In this document: piece after piece, positions 316 through 60,525 of the stretch
How positions within the stretch are numbered: position 1 is the first letter of the stretch
Layout of the letters: each line of letters starts with the position of its first letter
Source: an uncultured Candidatus Saccharibacteria bacterium
Lineage (GTDB): Bacteria > Patescibacteriota > Minisyncoccia > Phycocordibacterales > PALSA-1337
Assembly: GCA_964646515.1 (NCBI GenBank)
Contig: CAZYES010000001.1
Coordinates: 7,582 to 71,581, forward strand
Length of the DNA stretch: 64,000 nt
Reading direction: 5' to 3'
Translations under genes and position numbers: made by a program
The notes under the pieces: generated by a model
Seen by the model: the letters and a program-made list of their open reading frames with translations, nothing else
Told to the model about the DNA's origin: nothing
Databases searched by the model: none

Positions 316-324
316 TGCTATAAT
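316..324 (+). promoter_or_regulatory. Extended -10 promoter TGCTATAAT, 9 nt upstream of ATG 334
   Basis: Exact TGnTATAAT match; no Shine-Dalgarno site between it and the ATG. Confidence 0.5.
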
Positions 325-333
325 ATATGCAAT

Positions 334-2082
334 ATGTTTGTTGAAGATACCCAACTCTATAAATTTATTCTTGATTCTGGTCTTGTGGCCAAGTCCGATC
401 TCGACAATGCCAAGGAGGAGAGTGAGAAGCACAACAAACGTATAGGGGAAATTTTGGTCTCTCAGGGTAAGATTGACCCAGACAATTTACGGCGCATGCA
501 GGCTTATGTTTTAGGTATACCTTTTGTCGACTTGAAAAATTCAAAAATACCTTTTGAAACATTGTCACTCATTCCCGAACCAATCGCCAGGAGTCACAAT
601 ATTGTTGCCTTCAAAAAAAATGATGTGTCCCTAGAAGTAGCCATGTTAGATGTCAACGATCTGTCAGCTATTGATTTCATAAAAAAGAAAGTCAACCTGA
701 AGATTATGCCACGCATGACAGACACTGATTCGATGAAAGATGTGCTAGTTCAGTATCAAAAAAGCCTAAAAGCCGAATTTGGAGATATTATCCAAAAAGA
801 GACAGAGAGTTTGAAGATGATCTCTGAAGAAAAAGGCAAGCCAGTCTCAGAGAGTGATCTAAAGAAAATCGCAGAAGATCTACCTGTGGTACGCATCGTC
901 GACACCCTGATCAAGCACGCTATATTACAAAACGCTTCAGATATTCACATAGAACCCATGGAGGATCAAACTTTGGTCAGGTATCGTATCGATGGTTTGC
1001 TTCATGATGCCATGGTTCTTCCGAAACAAGCTGGGCCATCGGTAGTGGCGCGTATCAAAGTACTTTCCAATCTAAAGCTTGACGAAAAGCGATTGCCACA
1101 AGATGGAAGATTCAAAGTAGATATGAATAATGAGAAAGTCTCTTTTCGTGTTTCTATCTTGCCGACATATTATGGAGAAAAGACCGTGATGCGTCTTTTG
1201 AGGGAAGATATTACGGGATTTACTCTGGAATACCTAACTTTACATGGAGAAGGCTTGGAAAATATACACGAAGCACTTACGCGAACGACTGGCATGATTT
1301 TGACCACAGGTCCTACTGGCTCTGGAAAGACTACTACGCTTTACACTATGCTCGATATCTTGAATACACCAGATGTCAATATCTCTACTATTGAGGATCC
1401 TATAGAATATCAGGTAGCGCGCATCAATCAGACGCAAGTCAAACCAGAGATAGGTTTTTCCTTTGCCCAAGGGATACGCACTCTGGTTCGACAAGACCCT
1501 GATATTATTATGGTTGGTGAGATCCGCGATAATGAGACTGCTTCTTTGGCCGTGAACGCATCTCTTACTGGTCACCTTGTGCTTTCTACTTTGCACACAA
1601 ATTCTGCGGCTGGAGCTATTCCTCGACTAATAGACATGAAAGTTGAGCCGTTCTTATTGGTCTCTACACTTGATATATTGATTGGGCAAAGACTAGTTCG
1701 TCGTCTTACGGAATCAAAGAGAGAATATAAACTTTCCAAACCACAATTTGCCCAGTTGGAAAAAAAGGTCGATTTGGACCGCGTGTTACAATCACTAAAA
1801 GCAGAAAAAATAGTCAAACCAGATGATTCCTGGGACAAAATCTCGTTTTACAAAGATGTGCCTGGTCCAGAAAATGATGGGTTCAAGGGTCGTGTTGGTA
1901 TTCATGAAGTCATGAAGGTAACGCAACCAATAAAAGATCTCATTATGAAAAATGCAACGTCAGTAGATATCGAAAATCAAGCCAAGAAGGAGGGTATGCT
2001 TACTATGATCGAAGATGGCGTATTCAAGTGCGTACAGGGATTGACCACCATAGAAGAAGTTTTGAGGGTAGTATCAGAATAA
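334..2082 (+). CDS. pilB: Type IV pilus / T2SS assembly ATPase (PilB/GspE family)
   Basis: ORF 310..2082. MshEN-like N-terminus, Walker A GPTGSGKTT, Asp box DPDIIMVGEIRD, His box LVLSTLHTN. Start placed at in-frame ATG 334 because the -10 box lies inside the 310 start. Confidence 0.9.
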   Translation: MFVEDTQLYKFILDSGLVAKSDLDNAKEESEKHNKRIGEILVSQGKIDPDNLRRMQAYVLGIPFVDLKNSKIPFETLSLIPEPIARSHNIVAFKKNDVSLEVAMLDVNDLSAIDFIKKKVNLKIMPRMTDTDSMKDVLVQYQKSLKAEFGDIIQKETESLKMISEEKGKPVSESDLKKIAEDLPVVRIVDTLIKHAILQNASDIHIEPMEDQTLVRYRIDGLLHDAMVLPKQAGPSVVARIKVLSNLKLDEKRLPQDGRFKVDMNNEKVSFRVSILPTYYGEKTVMRLLREDITGFTLEYLTLHGEGLENIHEALTRTTGMILTTGPTGSGKTTTLYTMLDILNTPDVNISTIEDPIEYQVARINQTQVKPEIGFSFAQGIRTLVRQDPDIIMVGEIRDNETASLAVNASLTGHLVLSTLHTNSAAGAIPRLIDMKVEPFLLVSTLDILIGQRLVRRLTESKREYKLSKPQFAQLEKKVDLDRVLQSLKAEKIVKPDDSWDKISFYKDVPGPENDGFKGRVGIHEVMKVTQPIKDLIMKNATSVDIENQAKKEGMLTMIEDGVFKCVQGLTTIEEVLRVVSE

Positions 2083-2083
2083 T

Positions 2084-3304
2084 ATGTCACATTTTGTTTT
2101 CAAAGCAAAAAAACCTAGTGGCGAAATATATTCGGGCCAAAAGGACGTGGCTGATCGCTATGAACTTTATAAGATACTTCGTGGAAGCAATGAAGAACTT
2201 GTCTCTTTCAAGGAGAAGAAAGCTTCTCGAGGTATGAATATGAATATTTCATTTGGTAATATTTTTTCTCGTGTGAAAACAATAGAGAAGATAAATCTTG
2301 CCAGAAATCTAGGCTCTATGTTGGAAGCAGGACTAGATCTGTCTCGCGCTCTTTCTGTTTTGGAGCGCCAAACGAAAAATAGGGCCACGAGGGATGTTCT
2401 CACTGATCTTATTAGTGAGATAAGCAAGGGGGCAACATTTTCTGGATCACTGACCAAACATAGCAAAGTTTTTCCGCCTTTGTTTATATCGATGGTTCAT
2501 GCTGGTGAGCAATCTGGCACATTGTCTGATTCTCTGAAAGCAATTGCTGTTCAGATGGACAATACTTATTCTCTAGAGCGGCGTGTTCGTGGTGCTATGA
2601 CATATCCGGCAGTCATTGTCACTGCAATGGCAGTGATAGGTGTTCTCATGTTCATCTTTGTTGTGCCAACACTTCTCAAGACTTTTACTGATCTGAATGT
2701 TACTTTACCTTTTACGACGAAAGTGATCATTGCCGTCTCTGATATCATACAAAATTACGGTCTTTTGGTTTTGCTTGCCTTTGTCGTCTTGATCGGTGTT
2801 TTATATTGGTGGTCAAAGAAAGATATGGGGAAAAGATTTCTCCATATGATTGTTCTTAAAATTCCCGTTATAGGGACACTCATACAGGAAGTCAATACTG
2901 CGCGTACGGCTAGAACACTCTCGTCGCTTTTGGGGTCCGGCGTAGAGGTAGTCGAGGCGCTGGAGATAACGGCAAAGGTTGTCCAGAATGTCCACTTTCG
3001 CGCGGTACTAAATGAGGCTATTGCTACTATCAAAAAAGGCGATTTAATCTCGAAGACATTTTCTGAACATGAAAAATTGTACCCAGTATTTTTCTCCGAA
3101 ATGATAAACGTGGGTGAGGAGACTGGCAAAACAGGGGAAATGCTTCTCGGTGTAGCGAAATATTACGAAGAAGATGTTGGCCAAAAAACCAAAGATATGT
3201 CTGCTTTGATAGAGCCAGTCCTAATGATTGTAATCGGCGTGGCCGTAGGTTTCTTTGCTGTTTCCATGATCTCGCCTATATATTCGCTAGTGAATGTGAT
3301 CTAG
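2084..3304 (+). CDS. pilC: Type IV pilus / T2SS platform protein (PilC/GspF family)
   Basis: 406 aa with a duplicated GspF-like domain and 3 hydrophobic segments. Starts 1 nt after the pilB stop. Confidence 0.9.
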   Translation: MSHFVFKAKKPSGEIYSGQKDVADRYELYKILRGSNEELVSFKEKKASRGMNMNISFGNIFSRVKTIEKINLARNLGSMLEAGLDLSRALSVLERQTKNRATRDVLTDLISEISKGATFSGSLTKHSKVFPPLFISMVHAGEQSGTLSDSLKAIAVQMDNTYSLERRVRGAMTYPAVIVTAMAVIGVLMFIFVVPTLLKTFTDLNVTLPFTTKVIIAVSDIIQNYGLLVLLAFVVLIGVLYWWSKKDMGKRFLHMIVLKIPVIGTLIQEVNTARTARTLSSLLGSGVEVVEALEITAKVVQNVHFRAVLNEAIATIKKGDLISKTFSEHEKLYPVFFSEMINVGEETGKTGEMLLGVAKYYEEDVGQKTKDMSALIEPVLMIVIGVAVGFFAVSMISPIYSLVNVI

Positions 3305-3320
3305 ATTATTCTTTTTAGAC

Positions 3321-4625
3321 TCAAATCTCAATCCAATCTAGGATATCATATCCTCCTCCTGGCCCAGCAGAAAAAAGTGTGCTCGGAAGACCCGTGTCAT
3401 AAGTTACATTGGCGGTATTTTGCAGAACAATTTTGTAGGCGGTAACTTCTTTGGCGCTTACTCTTTGACCGAGGGTGATCTGTCCATGGTTGGCATAAGC
3501 AACTAGTGCCCCAGCGGATTGGCCCATGGCAACTGCGTTTGTGGATCCACCATTCTCAGCACTTCCATTTTGAGAAATGCAGAAGACAAATGAGTTTGGC
3601 GCGCCCGAACCCTGGAATTGAGTATTTTGTCCCACGGAAATAATACCACTAGTCGTGGAAGCCGATGGATTGTCGGCGATCAAAGCCACGTTTTGGCTCC
3701 CTAGGCTCGGATTTATCTTAATTATTGGGCCAGTTTGTGTATATATATTACCAACGACCCAAACTGGACCAGACATGGTCATCGTGACGCCGTTTCCTTT
3801 GATATAAAGATCGCAAGGTATTTTCGCTGGCCCGATGTCTTCATCCGATTCAATGGTATATTTGCCGCTAGTACATACGATTATATCGCCATTACTTGCT
3901 TGATCTTCCCACTCGGCTATTTGCGTGTCAGAAATTGGCATAGAGGCTTCAGGCAGATCAGCGCTATTTGGGAAGCAGTTTACGTTAGGGCATGGAGAGC
4001 CACCAACATCTGTGTTGCTAATAGTTTTATAAAAGGCCTTTTTTTCGATTGTAGAGTTTCTGATTGTGTGAGCATAGGCTGTGCCAGTAGCGTGAATTCC
4101 ATCTATCGATCCTGTTGCTTCTGCGGATATGGCGTCCCCATATATATAATTGCCCGCCCCGGTTATGGTGCCGTTGGAGAAAACATTTCCCGTAACACTG
4201 GATCGGTTTTGCATGACAAATCCACCTCGTCCCGACTGAATGCCATAATGGAAAGCTATCCCTGTTCCAAGAGAAAGATCAATTTGAAGTTTTCTTTGGT
4301 ACCCATTCACTTGTGCGTTGGTAGAAATTTTTTTGCCATTTTGCGTATTTTCAATGGTGACATTTGTTATGTTGGAATTGAGGCTGATGTTTAATGATGG
4401 CCCGATATTTTTGCCAGTCTTCAAACGGTATAGTGCTTCCTCAATGGCGCTATTGGCAGAGATGTATGATTGCTTTGAACTGATGGACCCTTTTGTTGAG
4501 GCAAAGTGGGCGAGTACGATATTAACCACGCCGATGATTATCACTATCACAATGGAAATAAATAAAAGAGTATTCAGGATGATTATATAGCCACCTTGCT
4601 TCTTGTTGTTGAGTCTATTTGTCAT
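3321..4625 (-). CDS. Pilus-associated large protein with a PilX-like hydrophobic N-terminus (putative minor pilin or tip protein)
   Basis: Last gene of the pilin operon. N-terminus KKQGGYIIILNTLLFISIVIVIIIG, followed by G/N/T/S-rich repetitive segments suggesting beta-rich structure. No recognised catalytic motif. Confidence 0.5.
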   Translation of the reverse strand: MTNRLNNKKQGGYIIILNTLLFISIVIVIIIGVVNIVLAHFASTKGSISSKQSYISANSAIEEALYRLKTGKNIGPSLNISLNSNITNVTIENTQNGKKISTNAQVNGYQRKLQIDLSLGTGIAFHYGIQSGRGGFVMQNRSSVTGNVFSNGTITGAGNYIYGDAISAEATGSIDGIHATGTAYAHTIRNSTIEKKAFYKTISNTDVGGSPCPNVNCFPNSADLPEASMPISDTQIAEWEDQASNGDIIVCTSGKYTIESDEDIGPAKIPCDLYIKGNGVTMTMSGPVWVVGNIYTQTGPIIKINPSLGSQNVALIADNPSASTTSGIISVGQNTQFQGSGAPNSFVFCISQNGSAENGGSTNAVAMGQSAGALVAYANHGQITLGQRVSAKEVTAYKIVLQNTANVTYDTGLPSTLFSAGPGGGYDILDWIEI

Positions 4626-4627
4626 GG

Positions 4628-5212
4628 TTATTGGTATGAATTCCTAAGTGTTGTGAAGCCACTGAATGTGCTTGTGGCAGGACCACTTTTCGTCAGATAT
4701 GGAATGTCTATGATGAAGTGTACGGCAGATGAGACGGGTGAAACTAAATAGTCGAAATAAAGGTCGGCTATTTTTACGTCGGTTGGAGAAATGTATTGAA
4801 TTTCGCCGGTATTGTCCATGTAGGCGACTCGGTTATTTGAGATAAAATAGCGTCTATCTATGGTTGTTGTCGTACTAGTTAACATATTTATGGATAGGGC
4901 GCCATTATTTGATCCAAGAATGCTTTGACCAGTGTTTATTATTTTGCCAGATCGGATGGCGCTCTCTATTTGTCCCATGATTACGGTTCCAACTTGGTTT
5001 ACGCGAGATGGAATAGCTACTGCTCTGTACCAACTGATGGTGTAATACAGGAATCCGGCAATTGCTCCGATGAGAAGGACTACTATTATTACGTAGATCA
5101 AAGTTTCCACCAATGTAAAACCTTTATTTTTTTCGGAAATTCCTTTTGCAGTAGTAAGTTTCCGATGGGTGAGTATTTTTGTAAACATTTTGTGTATGTT
5201 CTGAAAGTGCAT
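4628..5212 (-). CDS. Prepilin-type N-terminal cleavage/methylation domain protein (pilin-like)
   Basis: Class III signal KG|FTLVETLIYVIIVVLLIGAIAG; abuts neighbouring pilin genes. Confidence 0.8.
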   Translation of the reverse strand: MHFQNIHKMFTKILTHRKLTTAKGISEKNKGFTLVETLIYVIIVVLLIGAIAGFLYYTISWYRAVAIPSRVNQVGTVIMGQIESAIRSGKIINTGQSILGSNNGALSINMLTSTTTTIDRRYFISNNRVAYMDNTGEIQYISPTDVKIADLYFDYLVSPVSSAVHFIIDIPYLTKSGPATSTFSGFTTLRNSYQ

Positions 5213-5213
5213 G

Positions 5214-5699
5214 TTAATTTTGGAAGATATTGTGAAGTAGCATATTAGAGACTAGTAGCTCTTTGGGGGGACTTCCAGTAGAAGATATAGTGATGGTTAC
5301 GCTTCTTGTATCAGGATCAACAGTTCCTCCAGACGAGACTATGTCTTTTGATAAGTCGTCTCTTTGGACGGTGTTCATGACAAAAGAGACAGTAAATGCG
5401 TTGTTTACAGTAATTGGCGATAGAGAAACTGAATAAGAGACATCACTCCAATACAGATAGTAAGTTGTGCCGATATTCAAGGTGTCTATTTTCTCATCCC
5501 AACTCATATCTCGATAAAATCTCAAAGCTTCGGCGGCTTCTTCTGTCAGCAAGGCAGCCTGTGTGCGCTCGTTACTCTCTCTGGATATTCTGAGATACAG
5601 CTGAAAAGCTCCAGCTCCAGCGGTGACAACCGATATGATAATTGCCGCGGCGACTATCGTTTCTACGAGGCTGAAACCTTTTTTTGTGTTTTTTGTCAT
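5214..5699 (-). CDS. Prepilin-type N-terminal cleavage/methylation domain protein (pilin-like)
   Basis: KKG|FSLVETIVAAAIIISVV motif near the N-terminus; 4-nt overlap with the upstream pilin gene. Confidence 0.8.
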   Translation of the reverse strand: MTKNTKKGFSLVETIVAAAIIISVVTAGAGAFQLYLRISRESNERTQAALLTEEAAEALRFYRDMSWDEKIDTLNIGTTYYLYWSDVSYSVSLSPITVNNAFTVSFVMNTVQRDDLSKDIVSSGGTVDPDTRSVTITISSTGSPPKELLVSNMLLHNIFQN

Positions 5700-6163
5700 T
5701 TTATGATGTTAATATCTCCTTGGCTGCCTATAAAAATATTTTTTACACGAGAAGGATCTGTAATATATTGTATAGTTATTGTGGCCATAGTCTGTGGTAT
5801 ACCAGAAAGTCTAGCGAAAACTACACTACCTAGACTGTTGGGAGTAGTGGCGATCATATAACCATTTGTGACAGCGTAATTTTCGTTGGTTGTTGCTGAG
5901 GGATTGAATGAATTGCCCACGAAGTATGTGTAAGTAGTACTACCAAAATCTATTCCTGCCCCTGTTCCATTTTTTCCGAATGTGGCATTGATTTTTGCTT
6001 GTTCTAACTTGGAAACAATCGCGTCTGTAAGCGTGTTTATCTCACTCGATCGTTTTGCATTTATAAAAGCTTGGGTACTAATGCCGAAAAGCACGACCAT
6101 TATAATCATAACGACCAAAATTTCTATGAGAGTAAATCCTCTGTTATTGATTTGATCCCGCAT
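5696..6163 (-). CDS. Type IV pilin-like protein (first gene of pilin operon)
   Basis: NRG|FTLIEILVVMIIMVVLFG class III signal with Glu at +5. Confidence 0.85.
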   Translation of the reverse strand: MRDQINNRGFTLIEILVVMIIMVVLFGISTQAFINAKRSSEINTLTDAIVSKLEQAKINATFGKNGTGAGIDFGSTTYTYFVGNSFNPSATTNENYAVTNGYMIATTPNSLGSVVFARLSGIPQTMATITIQYITDPSRVKNIFIGSQGDINIIK

Positions 6164-6171
6164 GCGTAGTT

Positions 6172-6180
6172 ATTATATCA
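6172..6180 (-). promoter_or_regulatory. Extended -10 promoter TGATATAAT, 8 nt upstream of the pilin-operon ATG
   Basis: Minus-strand sequence reads TGATATAAT-AACTACGC-ATG. Confidence 0.5.
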
Positions 6181-6189
6181 TGATACAAT
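6181..6189 (+). promoter_or_regulatory. Extended -10 promoter TGATACAAT, 9 nt upstream of the tpiA ATG
   Basis: TGATACAAT-actgtttat-ATG. Lies back-to-back with the divergent pilin promoter in a 35-bp intergenic region. Confidence 0.5.
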
Positions 6190-6198
6190 ACTGTTTAT

Positions 6199-6984
6199 AT
6201 GACTAATAAAAAATTGATTGTTGGCAATTGGAAAATGAACCCGGCAACACTGGATGAGGCCAAGAGAATCGCCAGAAAGACTAAGAGGGTTGCTACACAA
6301 CTCAAGTATACAGAAGCAATAATCTGTCCGCCGTTTGCTTTCATTTCTGCTTGTGCCTCGAGAAAAAAAATATCGGGTTTTGGTCTTGGCGCACAGAATG
6401 TCTCATATGAAGAAGACGGTGCTCATACTGGAGAAGTTGGCGCGGTAATGTTGAAAAATATTGGTGTTCAGTACGTGATTGTTGGGCATTCCGAAGAAAG
6501 AGCGCGGGGAGACTCCGATTCAATTGTCGCGAAAAAAATCAAGACACTTCTCGATTTTGGTCTTACGCCGATAGTTTGTGTTGGCGAGACTGTGCGCAAC
6601 GAAGATGGTTCGCATTTTGAATTTATAAAAGTACAAATAAAAAATAGTTTTGTGGATGTGCCAAAAAAATACGCTGATAAGATTATTCTAGCTTATGAAC
6701 CAGTTTGGGCGATTGGCGCCAAGGAGCCGATGTCACCGGAGAATATATATGAGATGTCGCTATTTGTGAAAAAGACTTTTGCTGATGTTTTTGGACAAAA
6801 GCCAGCGATGAAGATGACTATTTTATATGGGGGCTCAGTAAATTGCAGAAATGCGGTAGATATTATTTCTATCGGCAAGATTGATGGATTGTTGGTTGGA
6901 CGTGAAAGTGTGAATATTGTTGGTTTTGTTGAACTCTTGAAGGCGGTTGATGGTATTTATTCCGGTAGGCCATCTGATTGCTGA
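6199..6984 (+). CDS. tpiA: Triosephosphate isomerase
   Basis: LIVGNWKMN N-terminal motif, VGHSERR-like IVGHSEERA, YEPVWAIG. Confidence 0.9.
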   Translation: MTNKKLIVGNWKMNPATLDEAKRIARKTKRVATQLKYTEAIICPPFAFISACASRKKISGFGLGAQNVSYEEDGAHTGEVGAVMLKNIGVQYVIVGHSEERARGDSDSIVAKKIKTLLDFGLTPIVCVGETVRNEDGSHFEFIKVQIKNSFVDVPKKYADKIILAYEPVWAIGAKEPMSPENIYEMSLFVKKTFADVFGQKPAMKMTILYGGSVNCRNAVDIISIGKIDGLLVGRESVNIVGFVELLKAVDGIYSGRPSDC

Positions 6985-7025
6985 TGATATATGTCGTTAG
7001 TCTTTTTGCTATAATTGTCCAATAT

Positions 7026-8204
7026 ATGAGAACGCTTCGAGATATAGAATTTTTGGAAAACGTAAAAGTATTATTACGTGCTGATTTCAATGTTCCTATA
7101 GAGAATGGCGCGATTGTTGACGATTTTAGGATTCGTGCCACTTTGCCTACGATAGATTATCTGACAAAAAAAGGCGCAAAAGTTATTCTTGTCAGTCATC
7201 TAGAATCGGCAGATGGTAAAAATCTATCGCTTGCGCCGATTGCTGATCATATAAATAGACTTGGGGTCAAGACAAGTTTTATAAAAGATATAAAGAAATC
7301 TTACGAAGTTATTGAAACTTGTGATCCGAAATCTAAAAACGGAGGCAGTTGTTTTTTGTTGGAGAATCTTCGCCTTTTTGAAGGCGAGAAGGCGAATGAT
7401 AGAAAATTTGCAAAAGAATTGGCTTCATTGGCAGACATTTTCGTAAACGACGCCTTTTCTGTTTGTCATCGTAAGCATGCTTCAATAATCGGCGTGACGG
7501 AGTTTTTACCGAGCTACGCAGGATTACAATTGGAAGAAGAGATCAGTCATCTTTCGATGGCTTTCAACCCCACTCGTCCATTTCTTTTTGTTTTGGGAGG
7601 AGCAAAATTCGAAACCAAGTTGCCATTATTGCAAAAATTTATTGATAAAGTCGATACGGTTTTTGTTGGTGGGGCGTTGGTTAATGATTTGTTAAAGTCA
7701 AAGGGTTATGAAGTGGGCAAGTCGATAACTTCAAAAACAGAAGTTGATCTTACTGATATTATAAATAGTCCAAATCTTTTGTTGCCAGTGGATATTGTTA
7801 ATCAAGATAAGGTCTGCAAGGCCGTTGGCAGGCTCTCGTCTGAAGATATTAACATGGATATTGGTCCAGAGACTTTGGCTTTACTTGTTGAGAAGATCAA
7901 ATCGGCCAGATTTATTCTTTGGAATGGCCCACTTGGTAAGTATGAAAGTGGTTTCAAAGAAGCAACGCTTCAATTTGCCAAGGCCTTAGGTGATATAACG
8001 GAAAAAAGTAAAAGTTATAATGACCAAGAAAAGGCTGTATCTATTGTTGGTGGCGGGGATACTTTGGCGACAATTTCTCTGTTGGGGATTGAGAGAGAAT
8101 TTACTTTTGTGTCTACAGGCGGTGGCGCTATGCTAGACTTTTTGGCCGAGGGAACGTTACCTGGTATTTTGGCACTGGAAAATTCACCTAAGCTTGTTCA
8201 TTAA
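7026..8204 (+). CDS. pgk: Phosphoglycerate kinase
   Basis: ORF 6978..8204. Conserved N-terminus (VLLRADFNVP) begins after ATG 7026; C-terminal STGGGA motif present. Confidence 0.9.
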   Translation: MRTLRDIEFLENVKVLLRADFNVPIENGAIVDDFRIRATLPTIDYLTKKGAKVILVSHLESADGKNLSLAPIADHINRLGVKTSFIKDIKKSYEVIETCDPKSKNGGSCFLLENLRLFEGEKANDRKFAKELASLADIFVNDAFSVCHRKHASIIGVTEFLPSYAGLQLEEEISHLSMAFNPTRPFLFVLGGAKFETKLPLLQKFIDKVDTVFVGGALVNDLLKSKGYEVGKSITSKTEVDLTDIINSPNLLLPVDIVNQDKVCKAVGRLSSEDINMDIGPETLALLVEKIKSARFILWNGPLGKYESGFKEATLQFAKALGDITEKSKSYNDQEKAVSIVGGGDTLATISLLGIEREFTFVSTGGGAMLDFLAEGTLPGILALENSPKLVH

Positions 8205-8261
8205 TGGATGTTGCGTGTGAAGAGCCTGGCGGTTTCGTGTTTGTAACTAGTAAAGACCTGT

Positions 8262-8648
8262 TTATTTTTCCAGTGAAGCAATTAGTTTTTTCTTGTTTGT
8301 CTCAAAATCTTTCTTATCTCCCTTTGTGTCTGATGCCGGGAATACCCAAATATGCGCATGGGGGACTTCTTCGCCCACGATTTTGCTCAAGATCACTTCT
8401 TGATTGAAAGCTTTTTTCTGTGCCAAAGCGATTTTGCTAACAATTTCGAAATATTGACCGATATTTGGGGATATTTTTTTGTCGGTTGTTATATCCCACA
8501 CCCAACGGTAGTGTTTTTTGGGAATTACCAATGAATGGCCGGGAGATTGTGGCCGTATGTCCAGAAATACTAGGAAGTCGTTGTCCTCGTACACTATATG
8601 AGCGGGAATTTCTTTTTTTACAATTTTGCAGAAGATACAATCATTCAT
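8262..8648 (-). CDS. HIT (histidine triad) family protein
   Basis: 128 aa; triad-like motif [10 protein letters not shown]; CIFCKI N-terminal motif. Confidence 0.85.
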
Positions 8649-8654
8649 ATAAAT

Positions 8655-8663
8655 ATCATATCA
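8655..8663 (-). promoter_or_regulatory. Extended -10-like box TGATATGAT, 6 nt upstream of the HIT gene ATG
   Basis: Minus strand reads TGATATGAT-ATTTAT-ATG. Confidence 0.4.
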
Positions 8664-8694
8664 TAGGCCAAGTCGTTTAGTGAGGTCGCGCACA

Positions 8695-8703
8695 TGCTAT
8701 ACT
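8695..8703 (+). promoter_or_regulatory. Extended -10 box TGCTATACT, 6 nt upstream of recJ ATG 8710
   Basis: TGCTATACT-ccattt-ATG. Confidence 0.45.
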
Positions 8704-8709
8704 CCATTT

Positions 8710-10533
8710 ATGTTTTATAATACTCGTCGTCAAATCACCGCAGAAGAACGTGTCAAAGTTGGCGTGACATCCGATCTGATTGCGCACCTGCTGTTTCATC
8801 GTGGCCTAGCCGATTTGGCTTTGGCCAAGGATTTTCTGGAACCAAACTATGAAAAAGGCACCCATGACCCGTTTCTCTTGAAAGATGCAGAAAAGTGTGC
8901 GAGGAGACTTATTCAGGCTATAAAAAATAATGAAAGAACGGCAATATATGCCGACTATGACGCCGACGGCATACCAGGCGCCGTAATTTTCAATGATTTT
9001 TTCAAGAGAATTGGTTTCTCTAACTATCTGATTTATATTCCCCACCGTCACGAGGAAGGTTTTGGCTTGAATATGGGGGCGGTCAGGGATTTGGCTAGTC
9101 AAGGTGTAAAACTTTTGGTTACGGTTGATTGTGGAATCACCGATGTCACACAGATTTCGGTTGCCAACGATCTGGGTATGGATGTGATAGTAACGGATCA
9201 TCACGAACCGCCACAGTTGCCGTCTGGCCAATCTCATCCAGCTTTTGCCATTGTCGATCATAAACAGATTGGTTGCGAATATCCTGATAAAAATCTTTGT
9301 GGATCCGGTATAGTCTACAAAATCATTCAAGGGATATTGAAAATTGATCGTTTTGGCCTCAAAGAGGGTATGGAAAAGTGGTTTTTGGACTTAGTCGGCA
9401 TTGCCACGTTGTCCGATATGGTCCCTTTGGTCGGTGAGAATAGAGTCTTTGCTTATTATGGCTTGTCAGTTTTGAGGAAAAGTCCGAGGAAAGGTTTGAT
9501 GCAGTTATTTCGTAAGCTGAAAATTGATCAGAGACACCTTTCTGAAGACGATATAACTTTTATGGTTACGCCCAGGATCAATGCTGCTTCCAGAATGGGC
9601 GTGTCGAGGGACGCTTTCAATCTCCTTGCTACCGATAACGATGATGATGCTTATAAATATGTTGAACATCTCGATAAGATCAATAATGAAAGAAAAGGGG
9701 TTGTGTCTTCCTTGGTCAAGGAAGTAAAAAAAATAGTGCGTGAGAGACACCCTGGTGTCGTCGGCTCCGCAGAGAAATCTTCTACTGCAAATTCGGAGTC
9801 GTCTCTACCAAACGTGATCGTACTCGGTAATCCAGATTGGCGACCGTCCTTGCTTGGACTAGTCGCCAACTCTTGCGCGGAAGAATTCGATCGGCCTGTT
9901 TTTCTTTGGGGAAGAGATGGTGACAATATTATCAAGGGCTCATGTAGATCCGAAGGCAAGACCGATGTCGTCAGATTGATGCGTGCTGCGCCGGTGGAGT
10001 CGTTCAGTCAATTTGGAGGTCACCACTATTCTGGTGGTTTTGCGGTAAGTAATGAAGAGATACATTATTTAGAGGAGAGGCTGAATGATGCTCACAATAA
10101 AATATTTAATTCGAGTTCTGTAGTCGAGAACGATAAAGGGGTTACTGAAGTAACTAGTAATAGTAAAAGCATAATTGATATGGAGCTTTCAATCGATGAG
10201 GTCGATTTTGGTTTGTGTGCTGATATCAACAAGTTGGCGCCTTTTGGGGTGGGGAATTCCAAGCCCATTTTTCTCTTTAGAAAAATTATACCTGTCGGGA
10301 TAAAGATGTTTGGCAAAAGTAAAGATCATCTCGAATTGATATTCAAAAAGAAGGATAATTCTAGAATATCGGCGATTTCATTTTTTGGTGCAAATAATAA
10401 GTGGGCTAAAAAAGTGAAAACCAATGGTGAAATTGATCTTATTGCTTCGATAGAAAAATCGGTGTATCGTGGCAGGGAAGAACTTCGATTGAGAATTGTA
10501 GATGTGTTCTTGGGTCCGATTGGTTTAGATTAG
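8710..10533 (+). CDS. recJ: Single-stranded-DNA-specific exonuclease RecJ
   Basis: ORF 8680..10533 (GTG). DHH-family motifs DYDADGI and VTDHH, plus a DHHA1-like region. ATG 8710 preferred because of the -10 box position. Confidence 0.85.
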   Translation: MFYNTRRQITAEERVKVGVTSDLIAHLLFHRGLADLALAKDFLEPNYEKGTHDPFLLKDAEKCARRLIQAIKNNERTAIYADYDADGIPGAVIFNDFFKRIGFSNYLIYIPHRHEEGFGLNMGAVRDLASQGVKLLVTVDCGITDVTQISVANDLGMDVIVTDHHEPPQLPSGQSHPAFAIVDHKQIGCEYPDKNLCGSGIVYKIIQGILKIDRFGLKEGMEKWFLDLVGIATLSDMVPLVGENRVFAYYGLSVLRKSPRKGLMQLFRKLKIDQRHLSEDDITFMVTPRINAASRMGVSRDAFNLLATDNDDDAYKYVEHLDKINNERKGVVSSLVKEVKKIVRERHPGVVGSAEKSSTANSESSLPNVIVLGNPDWRPSLLGLVANSCAEEFDRPVFLWGRDGDNIIKGSCRSEGKTDVVRLMRAAPVESFSQFGGHHYSGGFAVSNEEIHYLEERLNDAHNKIFNSSSVVENDKGVTEVTSNSKSIIDMELSIDEVDFGLCADINKLAPFGVGNSKPIFLFRKIIPVGIKMFGKSKDHLELIFKKKDNSRISAISFFGANNKWAKKVKTNGEIDLIASIEKSVYRGREELRLRIVDVFLGPIGLD

Positions 10534-10542
10534 GTCTCAAAA

Positions 10543-10551
10543 TGCTAGTAT
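10543..10551 (+). promoter_or_regulatory. Extended -10-like box TGCTAGTAT, 6 nt upstream of the rnhA ATG
   Basis: TGCTAGTAT-gttttt-ATG. Confidence 0.4.
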
Positions 10552-10557
10552 GTTTTT

Positions 10558-11301
10558 ATGAGAAAAAATCCTAGGATAATAATTTTTACAGATGGGTCTT
10601 CACGCGGTAATCCCGGTCCAGGAGGATGGGCCAGTGTTATAGTGACGGGTGTTTTGCCAAAAATAGAGAGTAGAAAAGCCACAGTGACAGAAATAGGTGG
10701 CGCAGAAAAGATGACGACAAATAATAGGATGGAACTTGTGGCGGCAATGCAAGGCATTTCACATACGCCACAAGGTTCAGAAGTAACCGTTTACACGGAT
10801 TCGTCATATTTGATCAATGGTATGACGAAATGGATCAAGAATTGGAAAAGAAATGGTTGGGTTACCAAGACCAAAGGTGATGTGTTGAATAAAGATATAT
10901 GGATAACGCTTGATCGATATGTTAACGAGAGAAGTATCAGTTGGAAATATGTTGGTGGGCACATTGGTATTGTGGGCAATGAAAGATGTGATCATATAGC
11001 CACTAGTTTTGCTGATGGTATAAAAATAGAATTATATAGGGGTTTTCTTTCTGGGTATGATTTGCCCAATATCGTGAATATATCGGAAGACGACAAAAAA
11101 GTTATGATAAAGGAAAACAAATCTTCTCGCTCGAGATTGAAAGCTTATTCATATGTGAGTTTGGTCAATGGCATCATCAAAATTGATCATTCTTGGGCGG
11201 AGTGTGAAAGACGCGTCAAGGGAGTCGGGGGCGCAAGATATAAAAAAGCGACAGATGCTAGTGACGAAGCTAAAATTATCGAGGGATTCAGTATGGCGTA
11301 A
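10558..11301 (+). CDS. rnhA: Ribonuclease HI with a C-terminal hybrid-binding-like domain
   Basis: N-terminal RNase H fold with DEDD candidates (FTDGSS, NNRMEL, YTDSSY, NERCDHIA). The C-terminal ~50 aa (AYSYVSLVNGIIKIDHSWAECERRVKGVGGARYKKATDASDEAKIIEGF) resembles the RNase H1 N-terminal hybrid-binding domain. Confidence 0.8.
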   Translation: MRKNPRIIIFTDGSSRGNPGPGGWASVIVTGVLPKIESRKATVTEIGGAEKMTTNNRMELVAAMQGISHTPQGSEVTVYTDSSYLINGMTKWIKNWKRNGWVTKTKGDVLNKDIWITLDRYVNERSISWKYVGGHIGIVGNERCDHIATSFADGIKIELYRGFLSGYDLPNIVNISEDDKKVMIKENKSSRSRLKAYSYVSLVNGIIKIDHSWAECERRVKGVGGARYKKATDASDEAKIIEGFSMA

Positions 11302-11413
11302 ATATGGTCGTAGAGTATGGTCGGGAGATTTCATCTGGATTTGATTTTTTATTTATCAAGATTTTAATCTTTTTTTATTGGGATTTTATCTAAGATGAGT
11401 ACGATTAACTCTC

Positions 11414-13844: not shown

Positions 13845-14087
13845 CTAGATCAATCCAGCTTTTTTCAAGGTTTTGAGTGCGCCGTTTTTTTGGATTGTGC
13901 GCAGAGCTCTCGTAGACACATTCAAGACTATAGTTTTTTTCAGTTCGGGAACATAGATGCGCTTTTTTTGCAGGTTTGGGTACTTTCTAATTGTGCCACA
14001 AGGATTGAATTGTGTGGCACGAGTACGGTTCGAGTAGCGACCGCCTACGACCGATTTCTTCTGAGTTATAGCGCATATTTTTGCCAT
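13845..14087 (-). CDS. rpmB: 50S ribosomal protein L28
   Basis: 80 aa; MAKICAITQKKSVVGGRYSNRTRATQ is typical of L28. Confidence 0.9.
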   Translation of the reverse strand: MAKICAITQKKSVVGGRYSNRTRATQFNPCGTIRKYPNLQKKRIYVPELKKTIVLNVSTRALRTIQKNGALKTLKKAGLI

Positions 14088-15298: not shown

Positions 15299-15300
15299 CT
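15267..15300 (+). terminator. Intrinsic terminator
   Basis: 8-bp GC-rich stem CGCCGCAA / TTGCGGCG with an 11-nt loop, followed by TTTTTCTT. Confidence 0.7.
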
Positions 15301-46213: not shown

Positions 46214-46263
46214 TTGGGAATAAGCAATTTCACTAAATAAGTTTTTTGTCATATAATATATTG

Positions 46264-48204: not shown

Positions 48205-48292
48205 TAAATAACAAAGAAGCGTGCTTTTAAATGTCTACTCTTGGTGGATTTTATCATTTGTTGGCTTTGTACATTTGAGGTAATATACTGTC

Positions 48293-49609: not shown

Positions 49610-49664
49610 TCGGTCATAGTGCATCTCATGTTCAATTTCTGGATGGTATGTTACATTTAGAAAC

Positions 49665-50936: not shown

Positions 50937-50989
50937 TGACAAGTCATGATTTTGTTGTGCATCGCTAATAATAGCGGTATACTTTTGTC

Positions 50990-53552: not shown

Positions 53553-53603
53553 TTTTTTGTTCGCCAATATTCCTCTGATTATTTTTTATTGCAGGAGAAC
53601 GTT

Positions 53604-54434: not shown

Positions 54435-54665
54435 GGAGCGTATAATTGTTGCGTGGATTAGAAATTTGCCTGCCCACCACAATATCTTTAACTAATATTC
54501 GTACTCTTGCGTGAACGTTATTATTGTGTTAGCCTCATTACACATTATAAGTAATCGTAACTAGTTCCTCGGTTTGCCCGTCCCATTGAGCGTTACTCTA
54601 TGAGAATGGTAGACAAGGATCTCGCTGTCAATCATCCGAAGCGAGCCACTGGTTGCAAACAAACT

Positions 54666-55166
54666 ATGGAAGAAAATATTCATGATGGACATTTGACAAC
54701 TTACGAAGTAGGGTATCTTTTGTCTATTGCTATTACCGAAGAGCATATTTTAGCCGAGGTTGATAAGATAAGAGAGATAATCACACTGGCTGGTGCCTCG
54801 ATCGTTACTGAAGGAGCGCCTCATCGTCAGGAGCTCTCTTATACCATGAGGATCAAAACAGTCTCTGGTTCCTATCAAAAATTCGATGAGGCATATTTCG
54901 GCTGGATCAAGTTCGAACTTGAATCTAGCAAGGTGGAGCTGGTCAAAAAGTCGATTGAAGATTTACCCTCGATCATTCGCATATTACTCGTCACCACTGT
55001 CAAAGAAAATACTTATTTGGGCAAGTCCGCCCCAGCTATCTCTACAGGTTTTGTCTCGAAACGCGCCACGATAGAAGGGCCAGTCAACATAGAAAAGAAA
55101 GATGTTACTCTGGCGACTCTAGAAGAAATGGACAAGAGTATCGATGAAATGGTTAAGGAGGCATAG
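54666..55166 (+). CDS. rpsF: 30S ribosomal protein S6 with a C-terminal extension
   Basis: YEVGYLL...LSY...IIRILLV pattern; position before ssb-rpsR. ORF track starts at 54600; ATG 54666 fits the conserved N-terminus better. Confidence 0.75.
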   Translation: MEENIHDGHLTTYEVGYLLSIAITEEHILAEVDKIREIITLAGASIVTEGAPHRQELSYTMRIKTVSGSYQKFDEAYFGWIKFELESSKVELVKKSIEDLPSIIRILLVTTVKENTYLGKSAPAISTGFVSKRATIEGPVNIEKKDVTLATLEEMDKSIDEMVKEA

Positions 55167-56700: not shown

Positions 56701-57801
56701 CTACTGTTCGTTAAGTCTGATGCGAATTTGTTTCAAGATCTCATCGCGTACCTTAGCATTTTCTTTGAGAAATTGTCTAGTGGCATCATAACCGCGTCCG
56801 AGTTTTGTCTCGCCGAATGAATACGAAGAACCGGATTTTTGTAATATAGAGTATTTCTCGCCCAAGGCAATGATTTCTCCTTCTTGTGATATGCCTTCAT
56901 TGTACATCAGGTCAAATTCCGTCTGTTTGAATGGCGCTGCGACCTTGTTTTTGACTACTTTGACACGCACTCGACCACCCATGATCTCTTCACCTTTTTT
57001 TATCTGAGCGATACGGCGAATGTCGAGACGTACTGAAGCATAGAATTTCAAGGCTTTGCCACCTGGTGTTGTTTCTGGATTGCCGAACATTACACCGATT
57101 TGCATACGGATCTGGTTGATGAAGATGACGATAGTTTTTGACCTGGCGACAATAGCGGTCAATTTGCGCAGGGCCTGTGACATCAGTCGCGCTTGTGTGC
57201 CTACATGATGTGCTCCCATATCTCCCTCGATTTCTGCCTTGGGTGTCAGCGCTGCGACCGAATCGATAACTACTACATCCATTTTGTTGGTGCGAATCAG
57301 GCTGTCTACGATCTCTAGCGCCTGTTCACCAGTGTCTGGTTGGGAAATGAGCAACTCGTCGATCTTTACGCCAAGACGTTTGGCATATTCTGGGTCCATG
57401 GCATGTTCAGCATCTATGTATGCGCAAATGCCATTACGTTTTTGTGCTTCGGCCACGATATGTAAGGCCAATGTGGTTTTGCCAGACGATTCTGGGCCGA
57501 AGATCTCGATAATACGTCCACGGGGGACTCCTCCTATTCCTAGTGCCCAATCGAGTCCGAGTGAACCAGTTGGTATAGCATTCACATTGACTCTGGGCTT
57601 TTCTCCGAGCTTCATTATCGAGTCTTCTCCGAATTTTGTACGGATAGTATCTAGGGCGTCACGGATGCTATCGGATGATTTCTTTTTTTCGTCTTCTTTT
57701 TTCGTATGTGGTTTTGTTTCTGTTACGCCATATTCTTCTTTTTGCGGTAGGTCCTGTTCTACTTTGGCCTCGTTTTTGTCTTTAGTTTTTTTAATAGACA
57801 T
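56701..57801 (-). CDS. recA: Recombinase RecA with a ~45-aa K/E-rich N-terminal extension
   Basis: Walker [19 protein letters not shown]1/L2 loop regions. The canonical N-terminal helix ([18 protein letters not shown]) starts near residue 49. Confidence 0.95.
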
Positions 57802-58222: not shown

Positions 58223-58241
58223 GATTGATAGAAATTACAAA

Positions 58242-60509
58242 TCAGATTATTGATCCGTTTTGTTCGCTTGATGTCTCGATAGTGTCATCTTTTGTTTCTG
58301 CTCCGACCCCGATAATTTCTCGTGGTTTTGTGCCATGGGCTTTACCAACAACTCCTTTTTCTTCCAGCATATCTATAAGTTTGGCTGCTCGTGAATATCC
58401 TATGCCCAATTTTCTTTGTATATACGATGTCGAGGCCTTGCCAGCAGAAATGACTTCTTCACGCGCTTTCTCGTATAATTCATCCTTTTCTTTTTCCTCT
58501 ATTGAGTCGTCTTCTGTCATAGAATCAAAAACAGCGTTTGCACCAGCTTCTGTCGGCGTCAGATTTATTTCGTCAATGATTTCGTCCTTATATGAATCTA
58601 TCAAGTATTTGACCACTTTCTTTACTTCTGATTCGGAAATGAAAGCAGATTGTAGGCGTACTGGCTTGGACATTTCACCTCCGAGGTAAAGCATATCTCC
58701 TGCGCCGAGAAGTTTTTCTGCCCCCATTTGATCTAGAATAGTTCTAGAGTCTATTTGTGAAGCCACTTGCAACGCGACACGAGTGGGAATATTGGCTTTT
58801 ATCAGTCCAGTTATGACATTGACGCTTGGTCGTTGTGTCGAGATAACGAGATGAATACCGGTGGCACGACTCATCTGGGCTAGACGTACTATGGCCGATT
58901 CCAGTTCTCGTGGATATGATTGCATGATGTCGGCAAGCTCATCTATTACTATAACAATGAATGGCATTGTTTCTGGCATTCTAGATGGCGAGGTCTCATA
59001 TTTGTCGGCGTCTTTCTTGTATTTTTCTATTGCCGGTAGCAGGACGCTCTTGTGATATGAGTCTATGTCTCGCGAACCATATTTTTGCAACACTTCGAAT
59101 CTCCGGATCATCTCTTTTGATGCCCATCTCAAGGCAAGGATGGATTTTTTTGGATCGGTAATAACCGGAGTCAAAAGATGCGGGATTTTGTTATACATTG
59201 TCAGTTCTACGCGCTTTGGATCGATCATGATGAATTTCAGATTTTCTGGAGAGTTGCGGTAGAGAAGGGAAGTAATAAGGGCGTGAATAGATACAGACTT
59301 TCCGGCCCCAGTGGCTCCGGCGATGAGGATGTGCGGTGCTTTGCCGAGATTGCTAAAATGTGCTCGACCAGCAATATCTTTGCCCAGCGAAATAAGTAAG
59401 GGCTTTTCTGATTCTTGAAAATCGGATGAAGCCAAGAGAGTTGCCAAGCCGACAGTAGTTTTTGCCGTATTCGGTACCTCTATACCAACCAGAGACTTAC
59501 CTGGAATGGGGGCCTCAATACGTATGGGGTGCGCTGCCAAAGCTAGAGCCAAGTCGTTATTCAGAGCAACGATTCTTGATAGCTTTACGCCTTCTGCTGG
59601 CTTTAGCGCATATCGTGTGACCGATGGGCCGATAGAGATCTCATCCATCTCTACGGTGATGCCGAAATTTTTCAAAGTGCGCTTGATGATATTGGCATTG
59701 GCTTTGATATCACCTGTTTCTGGTTTACCACGGTCTTTTTCTAGGAGCGACAACGGCGGGGCGGTGTACGGTCTCAGATGAGGTACTACTACAGATGAAG
59801 CAAAACCGTATTCTTCATCATCCGTGAAGTCTAGAGAATTTCCTCTTTTATTTTTCATTTCTTGATTTTTGTCGGTTTCTTTATTTGAATTTGACCTTAC
59901 GCCGTCGACGTCTTTTGAATCTTTGGAAACATTTGTTACCGCTTTCAAGATAGCCGCTTCTTCATGGGCATCCATCTTGCCGTCCTTTTTAGTTTCTAAG
60001 ATTTTTTCCTTCTTGGCGAATAGTGAGAATATATCTTTCCAGGTAAAATATATATTGAACATCATCACAATCGAGACGACGAATATAGCAATAAGCAAAG
60101 TGGTGGTTGCCCAGTAATCGATTGTTTTTATCAGTGGGGTGGCGATCCAACGTCCAAAGATACCTCCCGCTCCGGCGTAGCAAATATGGATAATACCCAA
60201 ACCAGAGACTAGGAATAATATTGCCCCGACGCCTTTGGACATTTCAAATTTTTTCTTGAGTCCCTGCAGAAGTGATATACCTAACATGGCGAATATGGTA
60301 GGAATGAGATAGTAACCAATGCCGAAGAATTTGAAAGAAAACATAAATACATATTTTCCCACTTCACCGGCTTTGTCTATGGCAGCCAATAAGGAAAGTA
60401 TAGTTATCAAAAAACATAATATCGATAAGATAAGGTGTACGGTTTCGTCGCGCATTTCCTCCCAGAATCGAATCTTTTTTGGTATATCAAAGTCTTTTTT
60501 CTTTGCCAT
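58242..60509 (-). CDS. ftsK: DNA translocase FtsK/SpoIIIE
   Basis: N-terminal 4-5 TM helices, Walker A GATGAGKS, Walker B VIVIDELAD, C-terminal gamma (wHTH) domain. ORF track begins at GTG 60539; ATG 60509 is preceded by TGCTATAAT plus 7 nt. Confidence 0.93.
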   Translation of the reverse strand: MAKKKDFDIPKKIRFWEEMRDETVHLILSILCFLITILSLLAAIDKAGEVGKYVFMFSFKFFGIGYYLIPTIFAMLGISLLQGLKKKFEMSKGVGAILFLVSGLGIIHICYAGAGGIFGRWIATPLIKTIDYWATTTLLIAIFVVSIVMMFNIYFTWKDIFSLFAKKEKILETKKDGKMDAHEEAAILKAVTNVSKDSKDVDGVRSNSNKETDKNQEMKNKRGNSLDFTDDEEYGFASSVVVPHLRPYTAPPLSLLEKDRGKPETGDIKANANIIKRTLKNFGITVEMDEISIGPSVTRYALKPAEGVKLSRIVALNNDLALALAAHPIRIEAPIPGKSLVGIEVPNTAKTTVGLATLLASSDFQESEKPLLISLGKDIAGRAHFSNLGKAPHILIAGATGAGKSVSIHALITSLLYRNSPENLKFIMIDPKRVELTMYNKIPHLLTPVITDPKKSILALRWASKEMIRRFEVLQKYGSRDIDSYHKSVLLPAIEKYKKDADKYETSPSRMPETMPFIVIVIDELADIMQSYPRELESAIVRLAQMSRATGIHLVISTQRPSVNVITGLIKANIPTRVALQVASQIDSRTILDQMGAEKLLGAGDMLYLGGEMSKPVRLQSAFISESEVKKVVKYLIDSYKDEIIDEINLTPTEAGANAVFDSMTEDDSIEEKEKDELYEKAREEVISAGKASTSYIQRKLGIGYSRAAKLIDMLEEKGVVGKAHGTKPREIIGVGAETKDDTIETSSEQNGSII

Positions 60510-60516
60510 GGTAATG

Positions 60517-60525
60517 ATTATAGCA
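60517..60525 (-). promoter_or_regulatory. Extended -10 promoter TGCTATAAT, 7 nt upstream of ftsK ATG 60509
   Basis: Minus strand reads TGCTATAAT-CATTACC-ATG. Confidence 0.5.

Follow-up and report, generated by a model that had tools for sequence, protein, structure and literature searches.

In haloarchaea, leaderless first genes stand alongside leadered and internal genes that likewise do without a Shine-Dalgarno (SD) sequence. The leaderless share in this regime exceeds 60 % (PMC6028130). In bacteria, a Pribnow box 6-8 nt from the start codon is the published signature of leaderless genes (GeneMarkS-2 group C), a class found mainly in Actinobacteria and Deinococcus-Thermus, where it takes in 25-50 % of operons (PMC6028130). 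A subgroup of the Parcubacteria lacks the anti-SD motif of 16S ribosomal RNA (rRNA) and overlaps the group that lacks ribosomal protein uL1 (Tsurumaki et al. 2022, PMC9297842); that work covers the rRNA and ribosomal-protein side only, and does not treat the consequences for initiation, promoters or leaderless messenger RNAs (mRNAs). Here we describe a stretch of 64,000 nt (the window; contig CAZYES010000001.1, deposited as an uncultured Candidatus Saccharibacteria bacterium) in which -10 promoter boxes, many of the extended form TGnTAnnnT, lie just upstream of start codons. We think it quite probable that the window comes from an SD-independent genome, in which one class of genes is leaderless and transcribed from extended -10 boxes, and the remainder relies on an A-rich start context or on translational coupling.

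The organisation is of a known kind, that of GeneMarkS-2 group C, in a new lineage. As in Mycobacterium tuberculosis, M. smegmatis and Deinococcus deserti, the -10 box is localised at first genes, these lack an SD sequence, and the start is AUG or GUG; the affected share is ~30-45 % here against 25-50 % of operons in group C. Unlike group C, in which leadered and internal genes use SD sequences, the window has SD motifs at chance level for all of its genes. The host is also different, a member of the Patescibacteria, and the boxes are mostly TGn-extended, lack a -35 element and sit in 24-35-nt spacers or in the preceding gene. In being SD-independent throughout, the window resembles haloarchaea such as Haloferax volcanii (GeneMarkS-2 group D), although these use an archaeal TATA box ~26 nt upstream together with archaeal initiation factors, whereas here a bacterial extended -10 stands at 6-9 nt and the leaderless share is below the haloarchaeal one. 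The boxes are like extended -10 (TGn) sigma-70 promoters in carrying TG one base before TAnnnT and no recognisable -35; unlike typical TGn promoters, these predicted promoters are systematically placed to make +1 fall on the start codon.

The initial annotation of the window had proposed leaderless mRNAs from recurrent boxes before start codons, and had named motif enrichment over shuffled controls as a check. We ran this check on 61 window genes at their unrevised longest open reading frame (ORF) starts, with none of the proposed start revisions entering, against 2000 local mononucleotide shuffles of each 40-nt upstream region. The enrichment was borne out. TAnnnT occurs at 6-9 nt in 27 of the 61 genes, compared with 9.4 +/- 2.8 after shuffling (0 of 2000 shuffles reach 27), and TGnTAnnnT in 7 of 61, compared with 0.5 (0/2000); TG is ~14-fold enriched at this position only. 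Neither motif is enriched at spacings of 12-27 nt in these genes. The SD-type tetramers GGAG, GAGG and AGGA, sought at 4-12 nt, are found in 4 of 61 genes against 2.9 in shuffles, which is chance, and two of those four matches belong to a -10 box. A strong class of boxes (TG-extended, or matching TATAAT in at least 5 of 6 positions) precedes 14 of 43 first genes versus 3 of 18 operon-internal genes, and the TG-extended form 9 of 43 versus 1 of 18. The loose TAnnnT was tried as a diagnostic and rejected; it is as frequent operon-internally, partly from the TAA stops of preceding genes.

The candidate start codons are 17 ATG and 1 GTG. The boxes before them are as follows.

316-324, plus strand: extended -10 of pilB, TGCTATAAT, 9 nt before ATG 334.
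6180-6172, minus strand: extended -10 of the pilin operon, TGATATAAT, 8 nt before ATG 6163.
6181-6189, plus strand: extended -10 of tpiA, TGATACAAT, 9 nt before ATG 6199.
7007-7015, plus strand: perfect extended -10 of pgk, TGCTATAAT, 10 nt before ATG 7026; ambiguous.
8663-8655, minus strand: extended -10 of the HIT-family gene, TGATATGAT, 6 nt before ATG 8648; 17 of 22 orthologs keep the signature.
8695-8703, plus strand: extended -10 of recJ, TGCTATACT, 6 nt before ATG 8710.
10543-10551, plus strand: extended -10 of rnhA, TGCTAGTAT, 6 nt before ATG 10558; signature in 14 of 19 orthologs.
31468-31473, plus strand: plain -10 TATATT of the SIMPL-family gene, 7 nt before ATG 31481; 5/6 match, no TG.
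36398-36403, minus strand: plain -10 TACAAT of the thymidylate-synthase-like (thyA-like) gene, 9 nt before ATG 36388.
37711-37719, plus strand: extended -10 of glyA, TGTTAGGAT, 6 nt before ATG 37726.
40072-40080, plus strand: extended -10 of argS, TGATACAAT, 6 nt before ATG 40087.
41884-41892, plus strand: box of ileS, TGTTATAAC, 7 nt before ATG 41900; TG present but non-canonical, a weaker candidate.
46252-46257, plus strand: perfect -10 TATAAT of the gene for a DUF11-domain protein, 6 nt before GTG 46264; the sole non-ATG candidate.
48281-48286, plus strand: weak -10 TAATAT of glyQS, 6 nt before ATG 48293; 4/6 match only.
49649-49657, plus strand: extended -10 of the M16 peptidase gene, TGTTACATT, 7 nt before ATG 49665.
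50978-50983, plus strand: plain -10 TATACT of the AI-2E transporter gene, 6 nt before ATG 50990.
60525-60517, minus strand: perfect extended -10 of ftsK, TGCTATAAT, 7 nt before ATG 60509.
60843-60848, plus strand: plain -10 TATATT of orf60857 (266 aa, function unknown), 8 nt before ATG 60857.

Ten TG-bearing boxes had been listed in the initial annotation, and a direct check of the sequence reproduced the coordinate, strand and spacing of each. All ten had been described as of TGnTAnnnT type; nine are, and ileS is not, its hexamer TATAAC ending in C and thus falling outside TAnnnT. With two extended boxes beyond that list, before the M16 peptidase gene (49649) and pgk (7007), eleven boxes fit TGnTAnnnT in total. 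The five plain hexamers reported before the DUF11, glyQS, AI-2E, thyA-like and SIMPL genes were likewise found at the spacings given for them. Pfam confirms the names PilB, pilin with its N-methyl motif, TIM, HIT, RecJ, RNase H and SHMT, and further ArgRS, IleRS, FtsK, GlyRS, AI-2E transporter, thymidylate-synthase-like, SIMPL and TatD.

The signal recurs in relatives. We compared 35 Patescibacteria loci (the 10 closest and 25 more distant ones) with 41 loci of other phyla. Among the ten closest loci, extended -10 boxes number 16.5, 8.2 and 3.1 per 100 genes at spacings 6, 7 and 8 over a background of 0.4, and among the 25 more distant ones 6.6, 4.1 and 0.8 over a background of 0.2. The 41 loci from outside the Candidate Phyla Radiation (CPR) lack an extended -10 peak and show a distinct SD peak 5-11 nt upstream; no SD peak is present in the 35 Patescibacteria loci. 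A test free of start calls, which counted at each offset from TGnTAnnnT the ATG codons opening an ORF of at least 100 codons, gave 56, 41 and 11 at spacings 6, 7 and 8 for 1416 motifs in the 35 Patescibacteria loci, with 1-8 at other offsets; the non-CPR loci gave 1, 7 and 2. In the relatives the codons 6-8 nt past TGnTAnnnT comprise 108 ATG, 12 GTG and 6 TTG. The Patescibacteria signature holds locus by locus over a GC content of 0.30-0.53, whereas AT-rich controls from Clostridia and Atribacterota (GC 0.29-0.33) show 0 % leaderless signature and 55-67 % SD. Base composition is therefore not its cause. Acidimicrobiia loci were included as a positive control, and their 19 genes are too few to inform.

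Conservation follows the gene. In 26 of 35 Patescibacteria orthologs, tpiA has a -10 box of the strong or extended kind 5-10 nt upstream, and TGnTAnnnT itself lies 6-9 nt before the tpiA ATG in ~23 of 30 orthologs (40-64 % protein identity) whose surrounding DNA is unalignable. An extended -10 is also found before 10 of 18 pilB orthologs (at 6-7 nt) and 11 of 24 recJ orthologs. The signature is present in only 1 of 20 orthologs of the operon-internal pilC, 1 of 11 of the third pilin-operon gene, also internal, and 0 of 6 and 0 of 3 of rpsG and fusA, and pgk orthologs have a box of their own in 3 of 31 cases. Overall, the share of orthologs bearing the signature is 42-77 % for genes that are first in their unit versus 5-10 % for internal genes. 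Such gene specificity indicates promoter behaviour rather than a general translation signal. A comparison of strains was uninformative about box conservation, the available contigs being at least 99.98 % identical to the window.

The boxes have the features of -35-independent promoters. At 22 candidate boxes, a -35 element 16-19 bp upstream is not enriched (3.09 matches versus 2.76 at random positions), and a canonical two-hexamer sigma-70 scan of positions 1-12000 performed at chance and detected zero boxes, which it missed because it demands a -35. Together these results suggest extended -10 promoters that act independently of a -35. Across 49 bacteria, the modal distance from the -10 to the transcription start site (TSS) is 7 bp (PMC12641261). 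The modal spacing between box and ATG here is 6 intervening nt, with eight sites in the window and a sharp mode in relatives; combined with the 7-bp mode, this would place +1 on the A of the ATG, and spacings of 7-10 would correspond to leaders of 1-4 nt. The earlier claim that the boxes are placed for transcription to begin at or near the AUG is thus upheld by the modal spacing, the ~14-fold enrichment of TG, ortholog conservation at first genes and SD motifs at chance.

We infer three things from the placement of the boxes: that they are active, where transcription begins and how the ribosome finds the transcripts. RNA polymerase would be recruited by an extended -10 (TGnTAnnnT) or a good TATAAT-like hexamer, independently of a -35, and the 5' end of the transcript would lie at the AUG or 1-4 nt before it. 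A leaderless mRNA offers no space for a ribosome-binding site, and for this reason we propose that the ribosome recognises the 5'-terminal AUG directly, as in the leaderless pathway of Actinobacteria, Deinococcus and archaea. With an extended -10 of ~9 bp and no leader, the full expression signal would fit into ~15-20 bp. A signal of this size accounts for the arrangement between the pilin operon and tpiA, and for promoters in short spacers or within the preceding gene. The pilin box serves the first, pilin-like gene (with an N_methyl motif) of a four-gene minus-strand operon, and it adjoins the tpiA box directly, the two lying back-to-back at 6172-6180 (minus) and 6181-6189 (plus) within the 35 nt that separate the divergent genes; two abutting boxes in so short a spacer leave no space for leaders. 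The divergent HIT/recJ spacer measures 61 nt. The boxes of rnhA, ileS and the DUF11 gene occupy spacers of 24-32 nt, that of rnhA within the 24 nt 3' of recJ. In relatives, 23 % of genes with a spacer of less than 25 nt still bear an extended box, and boxes are also found within the 3'-terminal part of the upstream gene.

SD use appears, from the sequence, to be absent altogether in this genome. The boxed genes had been described as lacking SD sequences, and this holds: GGAG, GAGG or AGGA near candidates only overlap the -10 itself (TTAGGAT at glyA, GAGGTAATAT at glyQS). It had also been noted that a clear SD occurs solely at tatD. We verified this motif, and SD tetramers elsewhere are at chance.

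53593-53598, plus strand: SD-like AGGAGA of tatD, 5 nt before ATG 53604; the only clear one in the window.

The tatD AGGAGA may be a coincidence or belong to a recently acquired gene. Scans of the window for transfer RNA (tRNA) genes and Rfam families gave no match, hence no rRNA from which an anti-SD could be read, and the conserved 16S 3' motif has no match in the 80 loci scanned (L001-L080). The gene for uL1, rplA, does not follow nusG-rplK (33354-34339), where a convergent DHFR gene comes next (window 33354-34871), and it is also not beside rplJ-rplL, which lie on the opposite strand ~6 kb outside the window (L086 16704-17614). On this contig rplA is thus missing from both usual neighbourhoods, which is consistent with membership of the uL1-lacking Parcubacteria subgroup. 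The window shares its phylum with the Parcubacteria subgroup that lacks the anti-SD (PMC9297842); the two empty neighbourhoods would fit the missing uL1 of that subgroup, and the mRNA side of the window is without SD motifs.

The initial annotation had called leaderless architecture the norm. This is too strong: a credible box is present in ~18-20 of ~44 transcription units and at 1 of 14 genes in the flanks, and the box is the commonest recognisable start architecture, short of a majority. The leaderless class would make up between roughly a third and almost half of all transcription units, with pilB, the pilin operon, tpiA, HIT, recJ, rnhA, glyA, argS and probably ileS as members, together with the DUF11 gene, glyQS, the M16 peptidase gene, the AI-2E transporter gene, ftsK, SIMPL, thyA-like, orf60857 and possibly pgk. 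Much of the translation apparatus stands outside it. No strong box lies at 6-9 nt from rpsL, rpsG, fusA, tuf, rpsJ, rplC or the rpsS-rplE block, or from nusG, rplK, rpsF, rpsR, efp, rplJ or rplL (nusG and rplK have only -10-like hexamers, at 10-11 nt), and no box was found before recA, ssb, clpP, nusA or hppA.

Genes without a box have a start context of their own. In the 45 non-leaderless window genes, all of which start with ATG, A occupies -6 in 67 % and -3 in 62 %, and C occupies -1 in 49 %; G falls to 0-4 % at -1, -2, -4, -6 and -7 and is ~10 % over the 20 nt upstream. Upstream regions in relatives are likewise A-rich and G-poor, but automated start calling there blurs the position-specific peaks. 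Adenines at -3 and -6 promote SD-independent initiation in experiments in Flavobacterium johnsoniae and Escherichia coli (Baez et al. 2019, PMC6847099). Like SD-less Bacteroidetes, the window's non-leaderless genes favour A at -6 and -3 and carry little upstream G, a likeness which here is one of sequence context alone; Bacteroidetes differ in that they keep the anti-SD and have no reported reliance on leaderless mRNAs, and the C at -1 (49 %) does not belong to the context described for them. Many internal genes have gaps of 0-4 nt or overlap, which is compatible with translational coupling. Operon-internal genes, genes of the translation apparatus, recA and ssb could therefore be leadered or translationally coupled, with an A-rich, G-depleted context replacing the SD.

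Several observations weigh against the reading of the window as SD-independent with a leaderless, box-bearing class. Leaderlessness is deduced from spacing alone, and four candidates stand at 9-10 nt, which implies leaders of 2-4 nt and not a 5'-terminal AUG. A credible box is found, by curated count, in only the ~18-20 of ~44 units mentioned above, an automated count gives a strong box at ~30 % of first genes, and in the contig flanks (15 kb outside the window) the single boxed gene of 14 is orf208 (TGCTAGTAT, spacing 6). TGnTAnnnT is not raised in the window as a whole, with 173 found versus ~195 expected, and it is only its position, not its abundance, that is special. The loose hexamer precedes 9 of 18 operon-internal genes and 21 of 43 first genes. 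Individual sites are also doubtful: ileS has a non-canonical box, pgk has an ambiguous start, and several plain hexamers are weak on their own, for example TAATAT at glyQS. The plain-hexamer candidates at glyQS, orf36445 and comEC may be compositional, given that operon-internal genes carry the loose hexamer just as often. Read-through probably also yields leadered copies of boxed cistrons, because terminator-like sites, scanned over positions 1-12000, are at chance. Finally, public gene calls are not independent support for the revised starts, because the gene caller may itself have been trained on this motif.

The best-surviving alternative, which we nevertheless hold to be unlikely, is that the boxes are real but secondary promoters, and that most mRNA is leadered or arises by polycistronic read-through and is translated SD-independently from an A-rich context; little translation would then be leaderless. 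Such read-through would fit the chance level of terminator-like sites and the many boxes in 24-35-nt spacers after a same-strand gene (rnhA, ileS, DUF11), and relatives often have boxes where the spacer is below 25 nt; moreover, translation of every non-leaderless gene evidently does without an SD. At the divergent pairs pilin/tpiA (35 nt) and HIT/recJ (61 nt), however, no same-strand gene lies upstream from which read-through could come. The sharp peak at 6-7 nt would need no conservation if it made no difference where the TSS lies with respect to the AUG, and the predominance of ATG far above GTG and TTG after the box also counts against this alternative.

A still less probable explanation, to which we attach little weight, is that the TA-rich motif at -12 to -7 acts as a non-SD translation signal on leadered mRNAs, as in GeneMarkS-2 group B, through AU-rich S1 binding or an unstructured leader. 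Phyla that lack SD sequences and carry AU-rich upstream signals are known (PMC6847099, PMC6028130), the upstream region here is A/T-rich and G-poor throughout, and the loose TAnnnT is equally frequent before internal and first genes. The enriched form, however, is that of a sigma-70 extended -10, with TG in register 14-fold over expectation here and ~40-fold in relatives. It is common before first genes and rare before internal ones such as pilC and pgk, some of the hexamers before internal genes are merely the TAA stop of the preceding gene, and it is another context (A at -6, A at -3, C at -1) that marks the non-leaderless genes. A group-B motif occurs alike at first and internal genes, which neither TGnTAnnnT nor the strong boxes do. 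A group-B-like component may nonetheless exist alongside the promoters, to judge from the loose hexamer and the A-rich context before internal genes. Chance, in the sense that AT-rich DNA yields TATAAT-like strings from which favourable cases and starts were chosen, is effectively refuted: although TGnTAnnnT is not over-represented window-wide, three of ten cases needed a revised start and some hexamers are weak, the longest-ORF starts already beat all 2000 shuffles, other spacings are flat, and the peak recurs in the 35 related loci and not in 45 others, including those at GC 0.29-0.33.

Leaderless starts at the boxes bear on where genes begin. Revised starts had been proposed for pilB (334), recJ (8710), ftsK (60509) and the DUF11 gene (GTG 46264), and all four coincide with public gene calls on the same contig, which give products of 582, 607, 755 and 646 aa, respectively; for pilB, the N-termini of orthologs align to residue 1 as well. 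Pfam models begin a few residues from the proposed N-termini, with in-frame stops just upstream: the TIM model begins at residue 5 of the tpiA product, and position 4 of the SHMT model corresponds to residue 2 of the glyA product. The case of pgk is less clear. Its start is probably ATG 7026, judged from the protein sequence, with position 3 of the PGK model falling on residue 6 and orthologs aligning from residue 1; public gene calls place it instead at ATG 6984, in a TGATG overlap with the tpiA stop.

We regard as evenly balanced the broader proposition that a whole branch of the Patescibacteria, the Parcubacteria/Paceibacteria-like lineages for which absence of the anti-SD and of uL1 has been reported, has abandoned SD initiation for two SD-independent modes. 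Taken jointly with it, and held with the same even judgement, these modes would be leaderless expression from extended -10 promoters lacking a -35, serving many of the housekeeping genes, and initiation on unstructured leaders with A at -6 and -3 or by coupling, serving all others. If true, the proposition would make the branch a bacterial parallel to the haloarchaeal regime; it would also give an mRNA-side account of how reduced ribosomes find start codons, and it would tie leaderless expression to genome streamlining through an expression signal of ~15-20 bp. The literature that we searched does not address start selection in CPR bacteria, whose ribosomes are reduced and, in a Parcubacteria subgroup, lack the anti-SD (PMC9297842). 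It yielded no paper on leaderless mRNAs in any CPR lineage, within a search of incomplete coverage, and a preprint on the TM7x transcriptome makes no mention of promoters or untranslated regions. The signal in the 35 loci, which come from diverse Patescibacteria metagenome-assembled genomes, offers an answer that is concrete and can be tested, and that would apply to a considerable fraction of genes. Gene-start annotation in CPR genomes hinges on the initiation model, which here shifts pilB, recJ, ftsK, the DUF11 gene and possibly pgk. In these genomes, the requirement for a -35 should be dropped from promoter prediction, and a cassette of TGnTATAAT, 6 nt and ATG (15-20 bp) should suffice for expression in tools for cultivable CPR bacteria.

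The window has ~41 % GC and ~65 protein genes, and its genome is a member of the Patescibacteria (CPR, Parcubacteria/Paceibacteria-like). Among 185,579 species genomes, the closest tpiA loci (54-64 % identity) are from metagenome-assembled genomes of Patescibacteria/CPR labelled Saccharibacteria, Taylorbacteria or Paceibacteria. Nearly identical contigs exist in metagenomes: JGI contig Ga0565092_000009 (79 kb) matches the first 13.3 kb of the window and Ga0565076_000002 (84 kb) its last 13.1 kb, each at 99.98 % identity, and a Logan contig (SRR12447078) matches the first 13.3 kb at 100 %.

Other features of the window are of separate interest. The product of ileS (41900-45580; 1226 aa) carries a His_Phos_1 domain (PF00300) at aa 551-738 (E 1.8e-27), which splits the class I catalytic domain into two halves, and the public Pfam record agrees. 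An isoleucyl-tRNA synthetase with an inserted histidine phosphatase is an unusual architecture for an aminoacyl-tRNA synthetase. The S10 operon (21988-27184) is interrupted after rpsJ and rplC by genes for an HlyD-like adaptor (23041-24567), an ABC ATPase (24652-25368) and a MacB/FtsX permease (25405-26640). It resumes as rpsS-rplV-rpsC-rplP-rpmC-rpsQ-rplN-rplX-rplE, and rplD, rplW and rplB do not lie between rplC and rpsS.

Long non-coding gaps at 18624-18974, 20427-20718, 15082-15444 and 61658-62233 contain no tRNA, Rfam match or Pfam-bearing ORF. One of them, the 351 nt downstream of fusA, holds a perfect TGTTATAAT (18653) and TGATACAAT (18844), neither of which is followed by an ORF; these boxes could drive transcripts with long leaders, or a small RNA that has escaped annotation. 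The genes fusA and tuf are normally adjacent. Here a 483-aa ORF without a Pfam match (18975-20426) lies between them. In three proteins the Pfam model begins late, at residue 46 in RecA (56701-57801), 41 in S10 (rpsJ, 21988-22401) and 34 in S6 (rpsF, 54600-55166). These genes either encode N-terminal extensions of 30-45 aa, lysine-rich in RecA, or have mis-set starts; for recA, no alternative in-frame start fits.

Some genes fall below the 80-aa ORF cut-off or are masked by overlapping ORFs, and were named from their translations.

13845-14087, minus strand: rpmB (L28); no leaderless-type box.
15445-15864: rpsL (S12, beginning MPTINQL); no leaderless-type box.
28760-28957: rpmC (L29); no leaderless-type box.
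~29711-29929: rplX (L24); no leaderless-type box.

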